Source: Thermoanaerobaculia bacterium
GTDB lineage: Bacteria > Acidobacteriota > Thermoanaerobaculia > Multivoradales > SZUA-115
DNA: 64,000 nucleotides
Assembly (NCBI GenBank): GCA_036274895.1
Contig: DASUEU010000057.1
Location: forward strand, 5,807 to 69,806
Direction: 5' to 3'
The position numbers and the translations under genes were made by a program. The notes beneath the pieces were generated by a model. That model ran no database searches, was not told the origin of the DNA, and was given only the letters and a program-made list of their open reading frames with translations. Positions 38,785 to 64,000 of this stretch are shown piece by piece (position 1 is the stretch's first letter; each line of letters starts with the position of its first letter).

Positions 38785-38802
38785 CTGCTCAAGACTGAGC
38801 AG
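38785..38802. promoter_or_regulatory. palindromic operator CTGCTCA-agac-TGAGCAG (copy 1 of 3)
   Basis: 135 nt upstream of the first ABM-like gene. Shares the identical 16-mer TGCTCAAGACTGAGCA with the site at 46639-46658. Same half-sites as the perfect palindrome at 51027-51050. Confidence 0.6.
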
Positions 38803-38936
38803 ATCCCCCCCGCTCGGGACGGTAGAGTCACCGCCAGCTCCGAAGCCGTTCGCCATCCCGAGCCGCGCACCCCTGGAATGCGGGTGCCGATACGGGTCTC
38901 TCTCTGCTTCGGGCGTTGCGGAGGTCCGTTTCAGCG

Positions 38937-63900: not shown

Positions 63901-64000
63901 GACGTCTTCCGCGAGAGCACCGACGAGCGGGGCTTCTGCGCCCTGGGCTCGATCAAGTCGAACCTCGGCCACCTGCTGAGCGCCGCCGGCATCGCCGGCC
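51970..64000 (+). CDS. hybrid NRPS / trans-AT PKS megasynthase (partial; continues past window end). Domains: PCP - Cy - Cy - A - PCP - Ox - KS0 - ACP - KS - KR - ACP - KS...
   Basis: Frame +1 is open by hand translation from GTG 51970 (GGGAGG RBS 7 nt upstream) to 64000. Approximate domain positions: N-terminal PCP 51970-52250 (LGRDSL); Cy1 52290-53500 (DALLTD at 52663-52680); Cy2 53550-54750 (DLAVAD at 53941-53958); A 54800-56330 ([40 protein letters not shown]); PCP 56380-56580 (GASSF); McbC-like oxidase 56640-57330 (YPSAGDTYAVQLYL...LEAGYVGQLLM); KS0 57375-58640 (Cys in DAACASSL, but HGTGT replaced by CAAAGA); ACP ~59150-59350 (YGLSSF); KS 59440-60710 (DTMCSSSL, EAHGTGT, KSNLGH); KR 61870-62580 (GGTGRLG, YAAAN); ACP ~62640-62870; KS from 62950 (DGACASSL, EAHGTGT). 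No AT domains in cis. Confidence 0.85.
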   Translation, partial: MAEAAAPSGALVALVSEVFPGAAALAPDEPLAGLGRDSLKSARLWLVLQRRFGVALPLEWLAGGPSLAALAERLEAAAEPGAAAPGLGGQPCDHPAPAAGPAAPLPLSALQQAYLLGRRSDLTADPVGCHLYRELEIDDLDLERLRRAWQHLLVRHEVLRAVVGPEGSLRVLPEPPAWQLAVNEGAADPQGAILAARARLAHVDYVPGEWPHFTIEVTLCAGRPSVVHLSLDALLTDGQGLEQLLAEWGEVYRDPAAPLPPLSGSLREAVATLAERRKASFEADLGFWSERLAELPPPPRLPRADPAPTPSRLLRRPLGGALGREDWRQLCRRAEQLGVTPTAFVLALFADLLSRRGDGAPFSLLLTTSLRPWLDAPPLGAAACVGCFASTLVHRVEEGSGATFEEAALERHRRLLAELEHAALGGVEVLRELRRRGAEVPELPVVFTSLLGSDSGDGAFPGRVRWALSQTSGVFLDHQVWEQDGELCYRWDVAEGIWAPGVVESLFAAFETALSAAARGLAAGSRPLNELQQAYYVARLTGQPAEGCQVYHRFDAPALDAPALDPGRLEGAWLAMVEAYEPLRTVVGRDGRARLLAGAPSRLRFAAFDLAAETAAEAHEALAREMTARPFPLERWPPFEVRISRVEGGPVSVHLALDLAVADGTSLHFLFREGLRLAADPEARPRPAQPEEALPQGAAAPAAEAHWRARFADLPPGPVLRERRPGAARGRTRLLARLPGWGRAKGWAAAQGLDLDALLLVPLLEALAPLASGPFTVPVVVWPPSDPHRAPGERTLLAWVSRDPAERSGRERAAAYQRQIRADAAAGPTGLAELRRHVMRQRRTRSFELPVVHTGLLDFGTLPLPAGVEAGPWLTATPDVSLDSIPVDHGDRLELAWDVVLEDFAPGQAQALFAAYRRGVESLIADPEAWAAGDRGPDLAHLEEPLRARLERWARAQPEAIALRGRWGWLSFGELEGRARDLAARLAALGVGPETVVGLRLRRGPDMVAAVFAVLGAGGAYLPIEPGWPAERARLILAEARAALLVGEAGGPGFELPPGCGYLGLDAADSATGLPPAAGAAPLHPLQTAYVIFTSGSTGKPKGVKVAHGSVAALLAWCQRHHPLAPGDLGLAVAALGFDLSVFDLLGLLGAGAGLYLADEEEQKDPALLLDVLLDQPISFWNSAPAVLAPLAPLLPGRVERQALRRVFLSGDYTPLGLPDALRRVFRRAEIVSLGGATEATVWSNSFLVGEIDPQWRSIPYGKPIDGARYRVLDAGLEPCPVGVEGDLYIGGGCLAVGYHHQPALTAARFVPDPFAPGPGERLYRTGDRAAWGADGNLVFLGRADHQVKVRGFRIELGEIEHRLRSHPAVAEALVVARDTPGGDRLLVAYLLPSGAAAGAGPATVEELRRHCAQALPDYMVPHRVAWLERFPATANGKLDRAALPWPLDEVRPTPPPARAAALALREEVAALFAGLLGASQLDPERDLFDQGASSFTIVQASDALHRRHGRRIPVSVLLTSPTAAGIAAFLAGEVDAPPLPDGALAAAAPLPRPEPVELLSAAERERFKAVAWNLRPAGPEARFLPLAAAPLAAEWHRWRATVRDFLDGPIPQADLARLLGLLRQVPQGTLYPSAGDTYAVQLYLHAKAGAVEGLAEGLYYYHPRRHALELLVERPAVDRHLHFLFNRPLYDRAAFQLFLVGERRGIEPLYGDDALRFLTLEAGYVGQLLMMGQAACGIGLCPVGSLAFTDLAGPLGLDAGQVFLQGFLGGRAAPRALVAPTGEQAPFSLPEPRSESRTRRPRREEIAIVGLAGRFPGAPDPDRLWANLSTGVCSLGPSPAERFGAGAAGLPAPAGGFLPDVDRFDSLLFRIAPAEAALLDPQIRLLLETAWECLENAGYSPASLGRAAPRVGVFVALMWQDYGRLGQEARDGEGVAPLTALAADAAHRLSHAFDFRGPSLAVDAACASSLAALHLAASSLRSGECDAALVAGVNLLVHPHHLGLLAAHGSLSPAPAALAFDPEASGWLPGEGCGAVLLRPAERAEAEGDTVHGLLEATGLGAAGGAHRFGAPDAAALAGSLAATLEAGGLSPDDVDYVECAAAGASLADAAELEALGTVFGTRASGRLPVGTVKPNLGHLESAAGMSQLVKVLLQLRHRRLAPTLASPRSHPLLDWERLPLELVTAARPWEPRGDRPLRALVNGVGANGGYGHVVVRSPRPRPPREAEGDARAEPPWILLSAAGRDRLDALAGRLRDHLAAALAGGTAPAVEDLAFTLRTGRTCLAHRLAFQAASPGQVVAALEAFLAGRTPPGLRLADTTGHPRRPLTASSERAAVEAWLAGDEVEEWPGGPRPGRRVPLPTYPFAGGRHWLTLPAAVPPGRPAPAADARRSQLEDRLREVWAEVSGIPLGELRADVPLEAYGLSSFLVARLNARLERDFGGLSRTLFYEHRDLAGVASALLARESGTVPPRPSEEPTPRAARPAREAEAIAVVGIAGRYPQAPDLEQLWQNLRAGRDAIGPLPPERRRPGWDAERMSGGYLAGVDRFDAPFFHISPRESERIDPQERLFLEVAWETLEDAGYSRERLRRRHGSRLGVFVGAMYNEYPFFGVERSLAGPAVDLGSTLAGIANRVSYLLDASGPSLTVDTMCSSSLTALHLAVESLRRGECEVALAGGVNLNLHANKFAQLERLGMAASDHRCRSFGAGGDGFVPGEGVGAVLLKPLSRARADGDRIHAVILSTAINHDGKTNGYTVPNPKAQAGVVAAALERSGVEPGAVSYLEAHGTGTELGDPVEWNGLMRAFGAEGPAPALPPGAIRLGSVKSNLGHLEAAAGIAGLTKVILQMRHGELVPSLHAERLNPNIDWARSPFTVQRRVEAWSPREGQPLVAGVSSFGAGGANAHLIVASPPRPELPAEEPRPRLVLLSAFDEERLRLLAGRLGRFLAARPPGLRLTDVAFTLAVGREPLRERLALVVDGLDLLAARLLAFAGGRAVEGVCHGRAPGPGGEPPGSSPEPFDLEGLARHWVAGGSLDAERLFGGPRTIVSLPSYPFAPLRCWPSDAPAQAEAGETRVELLVKTWEPEAEALQEAPPIRRPVPAAGSVLCLFQPAARPLAEELARLFAPADLVLVESEAGDDDEALPEDGALPVAPEALRGWIDLRDLAPGPGRAVPRLAALQRWLEARRGRESRLLHVTAGLQELPGAAPSLEGAVMAGLVRALAAEQPGLAARTVDLDVAPGSGPGEAVERAAAAILDEWGRDEALPETCWRGGRCHRPRLVPAAEPAGAAPPVLDPERVYLVTGGTGRLGGAVARWLVRRGARQLVLWGERDLPRGERPIVAELEALGAEVELWAGPLGDRSRLAGLLATLRAEGRAVGGVVHCAGRGSRAPAPWPRKSREEIAAVLAPKVEGLLALADALAGKPLAFFVLFSSVSATVPRLGAGVAEYAAANAFLDFFAGWAARRGRPEVRSIAWPVWRWEGPGAPAAAEGEEACAALGLGTLGEEEGLAALERVLSQGASHVVVCPRRAGFDARALLAVPERPRRRAPAPAPVPGGGGPVPAWLRGVFAETLGLAPERLDATATFGELGVESLLLAELVAKIEPWLGRPLDPTAFFDHPTLELLAAHLGVEGPAASPAPHPAPERAARAGAPEGERDDIAVIGLGCRLPGAEGPAALWQLLADGRSAVREVPGSRWPVARFYAPEPRPGASASKWGGFVDGIEDFDPELFGLGEAEATALDPAIRLMLETSLCCLRDAGWAEPALAGRAVGVFAGARMSGYRRRVARRHGTAGLGGDQSFIASRVAKHFDLHGPTLVVDGACASSLVAVHLACQSLRSGECELALAAGVEVLLDEEPYLELSAAKALSPRGRCAAFDLSADGLVPGEGCGVVLLKPLGRALADGDRIRAVIRGSAVNNDGRTLGLTTPNPAAQAEVVRRALAASGLSARQIGLLEAHGTGTPIGDPIELRALCDVFRESTDERGFCALGSIKSNLGHLLSAAGIAG

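Follow-up and report, generated by a model that had tools for sequence, protein, structure and literature searches.

Gene clusters of the leinamycin family have so far been described in actinomycetes, and the locus studied here raises the question of whether one of them resides in another phylum. The window (the whole stretch of 64,000 nucleotides analysed) belongs to a contig of an uncultured Thermoanaerobaculia (Acidobacteriota) metagenome-assembled genome (MAG), and in the literature searched no description of an Acidobacteriota cluster of the leinamycin type was found. We consider it likely that the window contains the front half of a leinamycin-family hybrid peptide-polyketide cluster, largimycin-like and started with chlorinated threonine, which is resident in the chromosome of its host and would add a divergent member, from a new phylum, to a known family. 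From the sequence we infer membership in the strict sense, with the DUF-SH PKS, the TE and lnmKLM predicted to lie beyond the window edge.

The region from 38.8 to 64.0 kb is organised in four operons (Table 1), and every gene listed in a preliminary description was found in its place by Pfam searches. On the plus strand, two DUF6039 genes are followed by a DinB and a P450 gene; the minus strand carries one operon for A-PCP, SyrB2-type halogenase and Cys-nucleophile alpha/beta-hydrolase and another for HMGS, ECH and AT-ER; and, again on the plus strand, a Crp/Fnr regulator gene is translationally adjacent to that of an AT-less megasynthase. The left border of the cluster is the intergenic region 38593-38915.

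Table 1. Features of the cluster and its left border (window positions).
Feature	Position	Strand	Evidence or remark
Secreted BNR-repeat protein	35719-~38592	-	gene before border, unrelated to cluster
Operator-like palindrome CTGCTCAAGACTGAGCAG	38785..38802	.	115-150 bp upstream of DUF6039-DUF6039-DinB-P450 operon
DUF6039 protein a	38916..39791	+	tandem ferredoxin-like/ABM-type fold; NCBI start 38937, HEX4954734.1, 284 aa
DUF6039 protein b	39819..40706	+	Pfam E 4e-77; paralogue, 45% identity to DUF6039 a
DinB-family protein	40733..41200	+	Pfam DinB 1e-07, DinB_2 1e-04
Cytochrome P450, putative tailoring	41204..42619	+	Pfam p450 E 2.5e-91
Alpha/beta-hydrolase-fold aminoacyl shuttle, SyrC/CmaE/LrgY-like	42552..43757	-	Pfam Abhydrolase_1; Cys nucleophile GMCGG
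Fe(II)/2-oxoglutarate halogenase on carrier-bound amino acid, SyrB2/LrgH-like	43768..44718	-	PDB and TIGRFAM matches
A-PCP stand-alone loading didomain, SyrB1/LrgS-like	44681..46552	-	Pfam AMP-binding, AMP-binding_C, PP-binding
Operator-like palindrome CTGCTCAAGACTGAGCAA	46640..46657	.	91-bp gap upstream of A-PCP/halogenase/shuttle operon; overlaps AT-ER stop codon
AT-ER, discrete acyltransferase and PfaD-type enoyl reductase, LnmG/LrgG-like	46644..48983	-	Pfam Acyl_transf_1, NMO, FabD_helical_ins
ECH at LnmF/LrgF (ECH1) position	48947..49729	-	Pfam ECH_1 E 8.6e-42
HMGS, beta-branching type, lrgM2-like	49732..50964	-	Pfam HMG_CoA_synt_N and _C
Operator-like palindrome CTGCTCACTTTTGAGCAG	51030..51047	.	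extended form GTCTGCTCA-CTTT-TGAGCAGAC; divergent HMGS / Crp-megasynthase promoter region
Crp/Fnr-family regulator, LnmO-like	51291..51968	+	Pfam cNMP_binding 1.4e-18, HTH_Crp_2 2.3e-11
Megasynthase, NRPS part	51970..57261	+	GTG start, GGGAGG upstream
Approximate NRPS domains	PCP 52000-52191; Cy 52384-53526; Cy 53548-54804	+	Pfam
Approximate NRPS domains	A 54817-56283; PCP 56371-56562; Ox 56761-57261	+	Pfam
Megasynthase, AT-less PKS part	57382..64000 (window end)	+	Pfam
Approximate PKS domains	KS 57382-58467; ACP 59161-59355; KS 59440-60549	+	Pfam
Approximate PKS domains	KR 61870-62415; ACP 62668-62865; KS 62950 onward	+	Pfam

The megasynthase (NCBI HEX4954745.1) is an uninterrupted protein of 4,141 aa with the domain order PCP-Cy-Cy-A-PCP-Ox-KS-ACP-KS-KR-ACP-KS, as mapped on nine overlapping pieces, and its stop is located 131 residues past the window edge, directly after the third KS. 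The N-terminal PCP, the Cy-Cy-A-PCP-Ox first module and the AT-less KS/KR/ACP modules proposed earlier were all recovered by the domain search, while no AT domain was found in the megasynthase, only KS-AT linker remnants. Since both C domains carry DxxxxD (DALLTD, DLAVADGTS) and not HHxxxDG, they are Cy domains; the Ox domain is of the nitroreductase type. Both A-domain codes, whose extraction had been suggested in the preliminary description, were obtained: a Cys-like one for the megasynthase (DLFNFSLVWK) and a Thr-type one for the stand-alone A-PCP (DFWSVGLVHK, extracted against GrsA). A Cys-like code is likewise present in LrgI, although the largimycins contain an oxazole (PMC13200230), so that the heterocycle is given here as thiazole or oxazole.

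The reading as a hybrid NRPS/trans-AT PKS with a discrete AT-ER and an HMGS/ECH pair for beta-branching was borne out by Pfam, NCBIfam and motifs. The AT-ER has the active site GHSLG and exceeds the NCBIfam cut-offs for both FabD (TIGR00128, 272 bits) and PfaD (TIGR02814, 620 bits). The ECH is 50-59% identical to its counterparts, which in related loci stand between the HMGS and AT-ER genes. The HMGS groups with the lrgM2 type, its identity being 59-64% to those adjoining DUF6039/ECH/AT-ER and 46-50% to LnmM-type enzymes encoded downstream of DUF-SH-TE PKSs. The DinB-family protein is possibly a thiol-dependent transferase, and NCBIfam matches of the P450 were all below cut-off. Both genes are 77% identical to their counterparts (syntenic in the case of DinB) in L071, an independent environmental contig which is collinear with the window at 76% nucleotide identity and is its closest relative. 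In the actinomycete loci, neither a DinB homologue nor a P450 counterpart was found within 10 kb of DUF6039. The 3' end of the P450 gene shares 68 bp with the convergent hydrolase gene.

The operon to which that hydrolase gene belongs encodes a SyrB1/SyrB2/SyrC-like chloro-aminoacyl loading system, which had been missed. Its second gene had been taken for a PhyH-family oxygenase, and the Pfam family assignment holds (4.8e-37); the oxygenase role was rejected, given the motif WHQAD (H-x-A), a full-length match to SyrB2 (PDB 2fct, E 1.9e-148; CytC3, 9e-129) and a score of 469.5 bits (cut-off 226) with the "chlorinating enzyme" model TIGR01762. In the hydrolase, a Cys at the nucleophile elbow aligns with the Ser of esterase Est1, and the gene comes after that of the halogenase in 30 or more related loci; as there is no solved structure or family model, its assignment as a shuttle is drawn from this nucleophile and the conserved gene order. 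The orthologues in Streptomyces specialis carry GFCGG in the hydrolase and the code DFWSVGMVHK in the A-PCP. As judged from sequence, the trio, with its Thr-type A-PCP and the N-terminal PCP of the megasynthase, reproduces the loading of LrgI by LrgS, LrgH and LrgY (PMC9396626), and this loading trio assigns the cluster to the largimycin-type branch within the family.

Homologues of the Crp/Fnr regulator with 40-50% identity occur at 26 related loci and at none of 80 generic PKS loci. Upstream of operons, the palindrome TGCTCA-N4-TGAGCA is present at three sites in the window versus 0.33 expected. Of 74 lnm-type loci, 65 also carry it, compared to 4 of 80 generic PKS loci, and we take it to be the probable operator of the Crp/Fnr regulator. 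The conservation of all three copies also bears on whether what is seen here is the decaying remainder of a horizontally acquired cluster that has lost its function, as might be suspected from KS1, where the Cys is present and the first catalytic His is replaced (ECAAAGA), and from the HMGS cassette, for which the window was found to contain neither a free-standing donor ACP nor a decarboxylating KS (LrgA/LrgD equivalents). Such decay is extremely improbable, since every ORF, that of the megasynthase included, is intact and has a high GC3, and catalytic motifs are preserved in Cy, A, PCP/ACP (carrier serines), KS2, KS3, AT, halogenase and hydrolase. Furthermore, the KS1 signature ECAA[A/S]GA is family-specific and common to all 14 orthologues, and in L071 every gene is intact and in the same order, which at its level of divergence indicates purifying selection.

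In order to accept a new phylum for the family, the cluster has to be native to its contig. The preliminary description had seen a non-actinomycete flank and a relative of the leinamycin family in another phylum, and both points stand: the flank encodes an RND pump with outer-membrane factor, an NdvB-like GH94 protein and a MacB/FtsX permease; the pump matches a protein of a Thermoanaerobaculia MAG at 100% identity, and the best named relatives of CzcA are from Acidobacteriota, Geothrix and Holophagaceae. The source being a MAG, actinomycete DNA could have been misjoined or misbinned with acidobacterial DNA, which would make the new phylum an artefact, and the overwhelmingly actinomycete distribution of the family (65 of the 69 DUF6039 genome loci co-occurring with the same genes) and the GC content of the megasynthase (77% versus about 71% in the flank) would agree with this. 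We regard a chimera as very unlikely, however, as the cluster is contiguous with these acidobacterial-type genes and the NCBI protein numbers run unbroken from HEX4954722 (CzcA) through 734 (DUF6039) to 745 (megasynthase) on one contig of 151,111 bp. Synonymous codon usage of cluster and flank correlates at r = 0.997, above the values for one flank half against the other (0.98) and against S. specialis (0.975), and the tetranucleotide correlation is 0.976-0.991. The GC excess is found in codon positions 1 and 2, not 3, and thus reflects a composition rich in Ala, Gly, Pro and Arg. Moreover, no actinomycete homologue exceeds 75% identity, and the closest relative, L071, is no actinomycete genome.

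The resemblance to the leinamycin family noted earlier proved to be true homology beyond architecture: in S. specialis and roughly 60 further loci marked by DUF6039, the cassette has orthologues with 42-75% identity and largely conserved synteny. In the loci that show the end of the PKS beside DUF6039 (L059, L046, L048), this end reads ACP-ACP-DUF-SH-TE, and DUF-SH-TE is the beacon of the family (PMC8479088). The window covers only the front half of the assembly line, the order is rearranged into four operons, DinB and P450 are confined to the acidobacterial version and L071, and the window proteins branch alone, inside no actinomycete clade. DUF6039 also occurs in contexts which are not obviously lnm-type, in Myxococcota (L045, with deoxysugar genes, a glycosyltransferase and an AlkZ-like gene) and Burkholderia (L013, with an FAD oxidoreductase and an acyl ligase). 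Trans-AT PKSs are generally known to evolve by module exchange. All this could indicate a mosaic which shares only the front end of the family (chloro-Thr loading, azole module, first PKS modules, AT-ER, HMGS/ECH, DUF6039) and continues into another back end that lacks sulfur installation by DUF-SH and differs in chain length or release mechanism; in that case its product would represent a new scaffold outside the leinamycin family. We think this rather unlikely, because the visible ends, in relatives with the same front-end genes, are all DUF-SH-TE, the megasynthases of relatives likewise stop after KS3, the next ORF opens with a DH motif in six of them, and the KS1 signature and the operator-like palindrome are shared. 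The downstream PKS of the same MAG was not among 14 traceable candidates from the best 150 representative matches.

For the preferred reading, a front half of a leinamycin-family cluster, the following pathway is proposed. The stand-alone A-PCP would activate L-threonine, as its code indicates, and the halogenase would chlorinate the carrier-bound amino acid, presumably to 4-Cl-Thr as with SyrB2 and LrgH. By analogy with SyrC, CmaE and LrgY, the hydrolase would transfer the (chloro)threonyl residue to the PCP at the N terminus of the megasynthase, where Cy-Cy-A(Cys-like)-PCP-Ox is predicted to condense it with Cys or Ser, cyclise and oxidise, giving the thiazole or oxazole. KS-ACP, KS-KR-ACP and the terminal KS, the first half of a split module, would elongate the chain using malonyl units that the AT-ER delivers in trans, and the HMGS and ECH may place an acetate-derived beta-branch on a later module. 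P450, DinB and both DUF6039 proteins are putative tailoring proteins, and the Crp/Fnr regulator may control the operons via the upstream palindromes. By homology, the next gene would open with a DH and the line end in ACP-DUF-SH-TE, with lnmKLM nearby, beyond the window.

Among known systems, the locus of S. specialis GW41-1564 (LN929762.1; L001/L019) has orthologous Crp, two DUF6039, HMGS, ECH, AT-ER, A-PCP, halogenase, Cys-hydrolase and PCP-Cy-Cy-A... NRPS genes, the extra PCP at the NRPS start being deduced from an alignment which begins at residue 7. It differs from the window in running on one strand throughout and in having no DinB adjoining DUF6039, and its contig breaks inside the NRPS. 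This strain, the first named match, served for the gene-by-gene comparison; many other actinomycete loci lie at a similar distance.

Leinamycin biosynthesis (lnm, Streptomyces atroolivaceus) loads D-Ala via separate A and PCP proteins and is not known to involve a halogenase or shuttle, whereas the window has the extra N-terminal PCP on its megasynthase and the lrgM2-type HMGS. With lnm and the guangnanmycin and weishanmycin clusters (PMC8479088) it shares the LnmI-type Cy-Cy-A-PCP-Ox-KS-ACP-KS-KR-ACP-KS ending in a split module, an LnmG-type AT-ER, an LnmF-type ECH, discrete loading A and PCP functions, P450s and an LnmO-type Crp/Fnr regulator (PMC7105598).

The largimycin cluster (lrg, Streptomyces argillaceus; MIBiG BGC0001853; PMC9396626, PMC13200230) was compared through its published description and orthologues at 42-75% identity, not through lrg sequences. 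Both have three-protein loading by a Thr A-PCP, a SyrB2-type halogenase and a transfer enzyme, an azole-forming NRPS with Cys-like A code and Ox, an AT-less PKS, ECH1 (LrgF), one or more P450s and a cluster-situated activator. LrgG is the only AT, and lrgM2 lies upstream of lrgI, coupled to lrgE (PMC9396626); here, too, one discrete AT is present and a second HMGS is encoded upstream of the NRPS-PKS gene, adjoining a gene in the "lrgE" position, which is filled by DUF6039 in the relatives inspected. The host is an Acidobacteriota instead of a Streptomyces, the single-direction actinomycete layout gives way to a rearranged order with four operons spread over both strands, the DUF6039 pair is in tandem and joined to DinB and P450, and no LrgA/LrgD-type ACP or KS was found in the window, which likewise shows no counterparts of lrgJ, lrgKLM1 and the type II TE. 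Finally, a comparable trio is used in the biosynthesis of syringomycin (SyrB1/SyrB2/SyrC) and coronamic acid (CmaA/CmaB/CmaE): an A-T didomain tethers the amino acid, a non-haem iron halogenase modifies it there, and an aminoacyltransferase of alpha/beta-hydrolase fold passes it to another carrier (PMC8748450, its refs 7, 8). What is supplied in those cases is a lipopeptide NRPS (Syr) or a cyclopropane pathway (Cma), whereas the trio described here would serve a hybrid NRPS/trans-AT PKS.

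Since the window has a GC content of ~72%, genes were called by codon-position GC and then checked against Pfam and NCBIfam. Between 38.8 kb and the window end, four operons were delimited, whose genes are listed in the table together with the other features discussed here. With the megasynthase scanned in pieces, every element named in the preliminary description was recovered by Pfam and NCBIfam among the called genes, the ECH by a Pfam match with E 8.6e-42. The P450 and hydrolase genes are convergent and, if their stop codons are as read, their 3' ends overlap by 68 bp; no terminator-like structure was seen between operons A and B at this junction. 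To the left of the cluster lies a gene for a secreted protein of ~950 aa with a signal peptide and BNR/sialidase-like S-x-D-x-G-x-T-W repeats, which did not match any Pfam family at E ≤1e-3. A 903-aa plus-strand ORF in the same region was rejected as an antisense artefact of high GC, because its GC peaks at codon position 1 and the true gene is on the minus strand.

Features of the window and their positions
Feature	Operon	Strand	Position	Remark
Flank genes		-	370-8604; 15936-18709; 18340-23724	
RND pump			18340-21414	
Secreted protein, ~950 aa		-	35719-~38592	
Rejected ORF		+	35866-38577	antisense artefact
Palindrome, first copy			38785-38802	perfect
DUF6039	A	+	38916-39791	
DUF6039	A	+	39819-40706	
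DinB	A	+	40733-41200	
P450	A	+	41204-42619	
P450/hydrolase overlap			42552-42619	
Alpha/beta-hydrolase	B	-	43757-42552	
PhyH-family protein	B	-	44718-43768	
A-PCP	B	-	46552-44681	
Palindrome, third copy			46640-46657	one mismatch
AT-ER	C	-	48983-46644	
ECH	C	-	49729-48947	
HMGS	C	-	50964-49732	
Palindrome, second copy			51030-51047	perfect
Crp/Fnr regulator	D	+	51291-51968	
Megasynthase	D	+	from 51970	GTG start, directly after regulator
First KS (KS1)			~57382-58467	

The RND pump of the flank is 100% identical to HEX4954722.1, annotated as [Thermoanaerobaculia bacterium], its next named relatives being from Acidobacteriota, Holophagaceae and Geothrix. This protein, the first DUF6039 protein of the cluster (HEX4954734.1) and the megasynthase (HEX4954745.1) are encoded on one contig of 151,111 bp, and their accession numbers are in step with gene order. 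The suggestion that the flank does not look actinomycete was borne out: its outer-membrane efflux protein, MacB/FtsX permease and NdvB-like GH94 protein are of diderm type. Besides this NdvB-like GH94/GT2 protein of 2,744 aa, which is of the cyclic-glucan-synthase type, and the CzcA-type RND pump with its outer-membrane factor, the flank encodes proteins resembling G6PD and 6-phosphogluconate dehydrogenase, a PLP-dependent decarboxylase and secreted peptidases of families S8 and S10, all of them ordinary chromosomal context. Synonymous codon usage of cluster and flank was correlated with r = 0.997, above the value between the two halves of the flank, and the tetranucleotide profiles of both regions agree; no tRNA or integrase signature of integration was present in the window. 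That the contig is chimeric is therefore very unlikely, since the codon usage of the cluster matches that of the flank and the accession numbering is continuous.

The predicted loading functions are encoded in operon B. The discrete A-PCP has the specificity code DFWSVGLVHK, which is Thr-like with GrsA as reference. Its neighbour had been taken for a PhyH-family oxygenase, a reading that has to be corrected, as the protein is a chlorinating enzyme of the SyrB2 type. Its alignments to SyrB2 (E 1.9e-148) and CytC3 (9e-129) are full-length, and it scores 469.5 bits against the NCBIfam model TIGR01762 'chlorinating enzyme', whose cut-off is 226.3. The hallmarks of SyrB2/CytC3-type enzymes, namely Ala or Gly in place of the carboxylate of the facial triad (H-x-A/G ... 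H) and full-length similarity, were both found: WHQAD carries the H-x-A signature, aligned to H116-x-A118 of SyrB2, and the second His is kept in LMHAS. In the hydrolase, the nucleophile elbow contains Cys (GMCGG), at the aligned position of the catalytic Ser in an esterase of known structure. Together with the acceptor PCP at the N-terminus of the megasynthase, this trio makes up a predicted loading system with the composition of the largimycin type. In largimycin biosynthesis, L-Thr is loaded by LrgS, chlorinated by the SyrB2-like LrgH and passed to LrgI by LrgY (PMC9396626).

The megasynthase start is preceded by GGGAGG, and the full protein has 4,141 aa and, apart from the initiator, agrees with the 4,010 residues translated from the window; its stop lies 131 residues beyond the window edge, right after KS3. 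Domain scans of nine overlapping segments yielded PCP, C, C, A, PCP, nitroreductase-type Ox, KS, ACP, KS, KR, ACP and KS in this order, so that the LnmI-type architecture Cy-Cy-A-PCP-Ox-KS-ACP-KS-KR-ACP-KS with its split-module ending is present. In agreement with what had been proposed from the sequence, both C domains are cyclisation domains (DALLTD and DLAVADGTS, with HHxxxDG absent) and the megasynthase is AT-less, the domain scan detecting KS-AT linker remnants only. The specificity codes of both A domains were extracted, as the preliminary description had advised; that of the megasynthase, DLFNFSLVWK, is Cys-like, again with GrsA as reference. Since the LrgI code is Cys-like as well and largimycins nevertheless contain an oxazole (PMC13200230), the type of azole is not callable from such a code.

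The usual Cys/His/His residues are in place in KS2 and KS3. In KS1, Cys and the second His are kept, and ECAAAGA (residues ~2107-2113) stands in place of EAHGTG; the motif ECAA[A/S]GA was found in 14/14 orthologous first KSs, including that of Pseudomonas, the first catalytic His missing throughout. According to the usual trans-AT rule, a KS without the first catalytic His is a non-elongating KS0, which would apply to KS1. However, the published module bookkeeping of largimycin, with the C9 branch at module 5 and the C3 branch at module 8, requires elongation by the module of KS1. The KS3 equivalent is also the last domain in six relatives, where another 116-137 residues follow before the stop and a DH motif stands at the start of the next ORF. 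The best matches to megasynthase residues 1-977 showed 41-42% identity in a homologue search that did not recover the protein itself, and an ACP-KS3 query against metagenomes returned nothing closer than 53%. The best of those metagenome matches (53-59%) lies on a contig of 526,935 bp with 50% GC (Ga0316207_10000006), whose layout, A-PCP-Ox-KS-KS-KR-KS followed by an ORF opening with DH, is that of an lnm-like assembly line, here from an organism of low GC; a contig of identical length carries the DUF6039 match P0178 and is probably the same one.

The AT-ER is a discrete protein of the LnmG type, in which the AT, with the motif GHSLG, and the PfaD-type ER both score above the NCBIfam cut-offs. 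Two types of HMGS occur in the family, and the window HMGS is closer to the copy adjoining DUF6039, ECH and AT-ER (59-64%) than to the LnmM-type copy behind the DUF-SH-TE ending of the PKS (46-50%). An HMGS of the lrgM2 type and an ECH1 lie upstream of the NRPS-PKS gene, the arrangement that marks the largimycin subgroup, in which this HMGS is the second one. In the largimycin cluster, lrgM2 is located upstream of lrgI and coupled to lrgE, the ECH1 is LrgF, and LrgG is the sole AT; all lnm-type clusters have an lnmKLM cassette (AT/decarboxylase, ACP and HMGS) downstream of their lnmJ-type PKS (PMC9396626), a position that in the present cluster would fall beyond the window. A free-standing LrgA-type donor ACP and an LrgD-type decarboxylating KS, which serve the acetyl branch in the largimycin subgroup, were absent from window 1-51969, outside the megasynthase, where no KS- or ACP-like sequence was detected (best tblastn E 0.011); both may lie downstream of the window.

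Since the window closely matches the largimycin pathway, a route can be proposed whose framework of domain set, catalytic motifs and orthology was observed directly. As to substrates, order of events and chemistry, we infer that Thr would be loaded on the A-PCP and chlorinated while tethered, and that the Cys-hydrolase would move the chlorinated Thr to the extra N-terminal PCP of the megasynthase. There, condensation with Cys or Ser, heterocyclisation and oxidation would yield an azole, the chain would be extended by malonyl units supplied in trans, and HMGS and ECH would add an acetate-derived beta-branch.

The best named match to the NRPS part came from Streptomyces specialis, whose locus has the order Crp, DUF6039, HMGS, ECH, AT-ER, DUF6039, A-PCP, halogenase, Cys-hydrolase (GFCGG), PCP-Cy-Cy-A..., each gene being 42-75% identical to its window counterpart. 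A DUF6039 profile search of species-representative genomes gave 69 loci, 65 of them actinomycete, and most carry the same HMGS, ECH, AT-ER, A-PCP, halogenase, hydrolase, Crp and Cy-Cy-A-PCP-Ox-KS genes; Acidobacteriota contributed 0/69. The other four came from Burkholderia, Pseudoduganella, Pseudomonas and a Myxococcota MAG. The Pseudomonas locus (sp. H3(2019), NZ_VMSG01000002.1, 291064-311921) has two DUF6039 genes and a Cy-Cy-A-PCP-Ox-KS megasynthase with the family KS1 signature, along with genes for RND efflux, methylmalonyl-CoA mutase/MeaB and an SDR; the halogenase is absent from this locus, which looks like a leinamycin-type cluster, and the mutase could supply methylmalonyl-CoA to an LnmK-type branch. 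DUF6039 is accompanied by HMGS, ECH, acyl ligase, FAD oxidoreductase and RND efflux genes in Burkholderia sp. BCC0397, by methylmalonyl-CoA mutase in Pseudoduganella buxea, and in the Myxococcota MAG by deoxysugar genes, a glycosyltransferase, a P450, four copies of the probable operator described below and an AlkZ-like DNA glycosylase gene, a marker of genotoxin self-resistance. In a further relative of 76% GC (ENA k141_4512349; JGI Ga0207706_10002043), ECH and AT-ER are fused into a protein of 1,226 aa and the megasynthase is divergent from the accessory genes, an arrangement that indicates fluid gene order in the family.

Judged by NJ trees and the distribution of identities, the distance of the window proteins from their actinomycete homologues is as large as that between the deepest clades of actinomycetes, and the window proteins nest in no genus. 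The left part of the cluster has a second environmental copy in a separate sequencing run (Logan SRR13378650 contig 68277, 7,477 bp, 70% GC), which is collinear with 38.9-46.1 kb of the window (76% nucleotide identity), with proteins 62-86% identical and the same gene order, DinB and P450 included. That the cluster is a decaying remnant is likewise very unlikely, since its ORFs are intact and this diverged relative conserves part of it. In the three relatives where a PKS end is visible beside DUF6039 (L059, L046 and L048), KS-ACP-ACP is followed by an LPG_synthase_C-like, a Beta_elim_lyase-type and a thioesterase domain. A DUF-SH didomain in the last PKS module, made up of an LPG_synthase_C-like domain and a Beta_elim_lyase-type thiocysteine lyase, is a beacon of the leinamycin family (PMC8479088; Pfam identity of the SH domain per PMC3870968), so this DUF-SH-TE ending places the beacon in these relatives; in the cluster of the window, its expected place is beyond the window end. 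Among the best 150 representative matches screened for LnmJ-like PKSs, two had a C-terminal DUF-SH-TE, one from Streptomyces sp. RKND-216 and one on a 588-kb contig; an LnmJ-like PKS of the Thermoanaerobaculia MAG itself was not among the 14 candidates traced from these 150. A mosaic cluster, its leinamycin-type front joined to a different back end, is an improbable alternative, though one we take more seriously than a chimera or a remnant.

Three markers of the family are present in the window, the DUF6039 genes, the KS1 motif and the palindrome TGCTCA-N4-TGAGCA, all of them empirical and derived in this analysis rather than published criteria. The palindrome, as CTGCTCA-N4-TGAGCAG, is perfect in the two divergent promoter regions, and its third copy lies in the 91-bp gap before operon B. 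In the window, 3 sites were observed versus 0.33 expected. Counting the core with ≤1 mismatch, the loci gathered by DUF6039 contained 153 sites in 1.47 Mb, with a site in 65/74 loci (for instance at 2195, 5425, 7257 and 9913 of locus L056 and at 9585 and 9639 of the Myxococcota locus), compared to 5 sites in 1.0 Mb of generic trans-AT PKS loci (4/80 loci) and 0-4 sites per shuffle when the 1.47 Mb were shuffled. Exact sites were outside called ORFs in 71% of cases, at a median of 69 bp ahead of the next start codon, and the nearest probe gene was most often DUF6039, ~100 bp downstream. In leinamycin-type clusters of Actinomycetota and Myxococcota, as in the acidobacterium of the window, the palindrome precedes operons. 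It is probably the operator of the cluster's LnmO-like Crp/Fnr regulator, as judged from its half-site spacing, which is that of Crp/Fnr boxes, from the Crp/Fnr gene present in 26/74 DUF6039 loci versus 0/80 generic PKS loci, and from the precedent of LnmO, a Crp/Fnr-type activator of leinamycin production (PMC7105598). Canonical FNR or CRP boxes were not found at ≤3 mismatches in the positions of interest.

Compounds of the leinamycin family are potent antitumour leads that damage DNA, and their chemistry is unusual in its sulfur, beta-branching and cryptic chlorination. To our knowledge, published mining of the family has been confined to actinomycetes, and we know of no cultured producers in the class Thermoanaerobaculia. 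A compositionally native, intact and deep-branching acidobacterial version widens the range of the family, as do the partial equivalents in Pseudomonas, Burkholderia, Pseudoduganella and Myxococcota genomes, and it gives genome mining a concrete target in an uncultured class. Comparison of the divergent enzyme sets (42-75% identity) could help to assign the step from halohydrin to epoxide and what DUF6039 and LrgC3 do. DUF6039, as a compact beacon for finding the family by sequence, the palindrome, as a candidate regulator-binding site for activating silent clusters, and the KS1 signature are transferable by-products. Taking all this together, we tentatively speculate that the Thermoanaerobaculia lineage and at least one diverged relative natively keep a deep-branching leinamycin-family pathway, that its product might be a structurally new DNA-reactive metabolite with a chloro-threonine-derived warhead, alongside thiol handling of a DinB-type, non-mycothiol kind in a cell of Gram-negative type, and that one Crp/Fnr operator (TGCTCA-N4-TGAGCA) might serve the family in at least three phyla and be usable to switch on its mostly silent clusters.

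No paper linking leinamycin-type clusters to Acidobacteriota or Thermoanaerobaculia was found in the literature searched, and in a 2021 survey proteobacterial and myxobacterial DUF-SH clusters appear only as non-LNM types. At least one P450 gene is a criterion of the leinamycin family (PMC13200230). The resemblance to this family noted at the outset holds for the LnmI-type architecture, the AT-ER, the P450, the Crp/Fnr regulator, the loading trio with its halogenase and the lrgM2-type HMGS with ECH. We rate the cluster not as a new kind of system, but as a probable new, divergent member of the leinamycin family in a new phylum.
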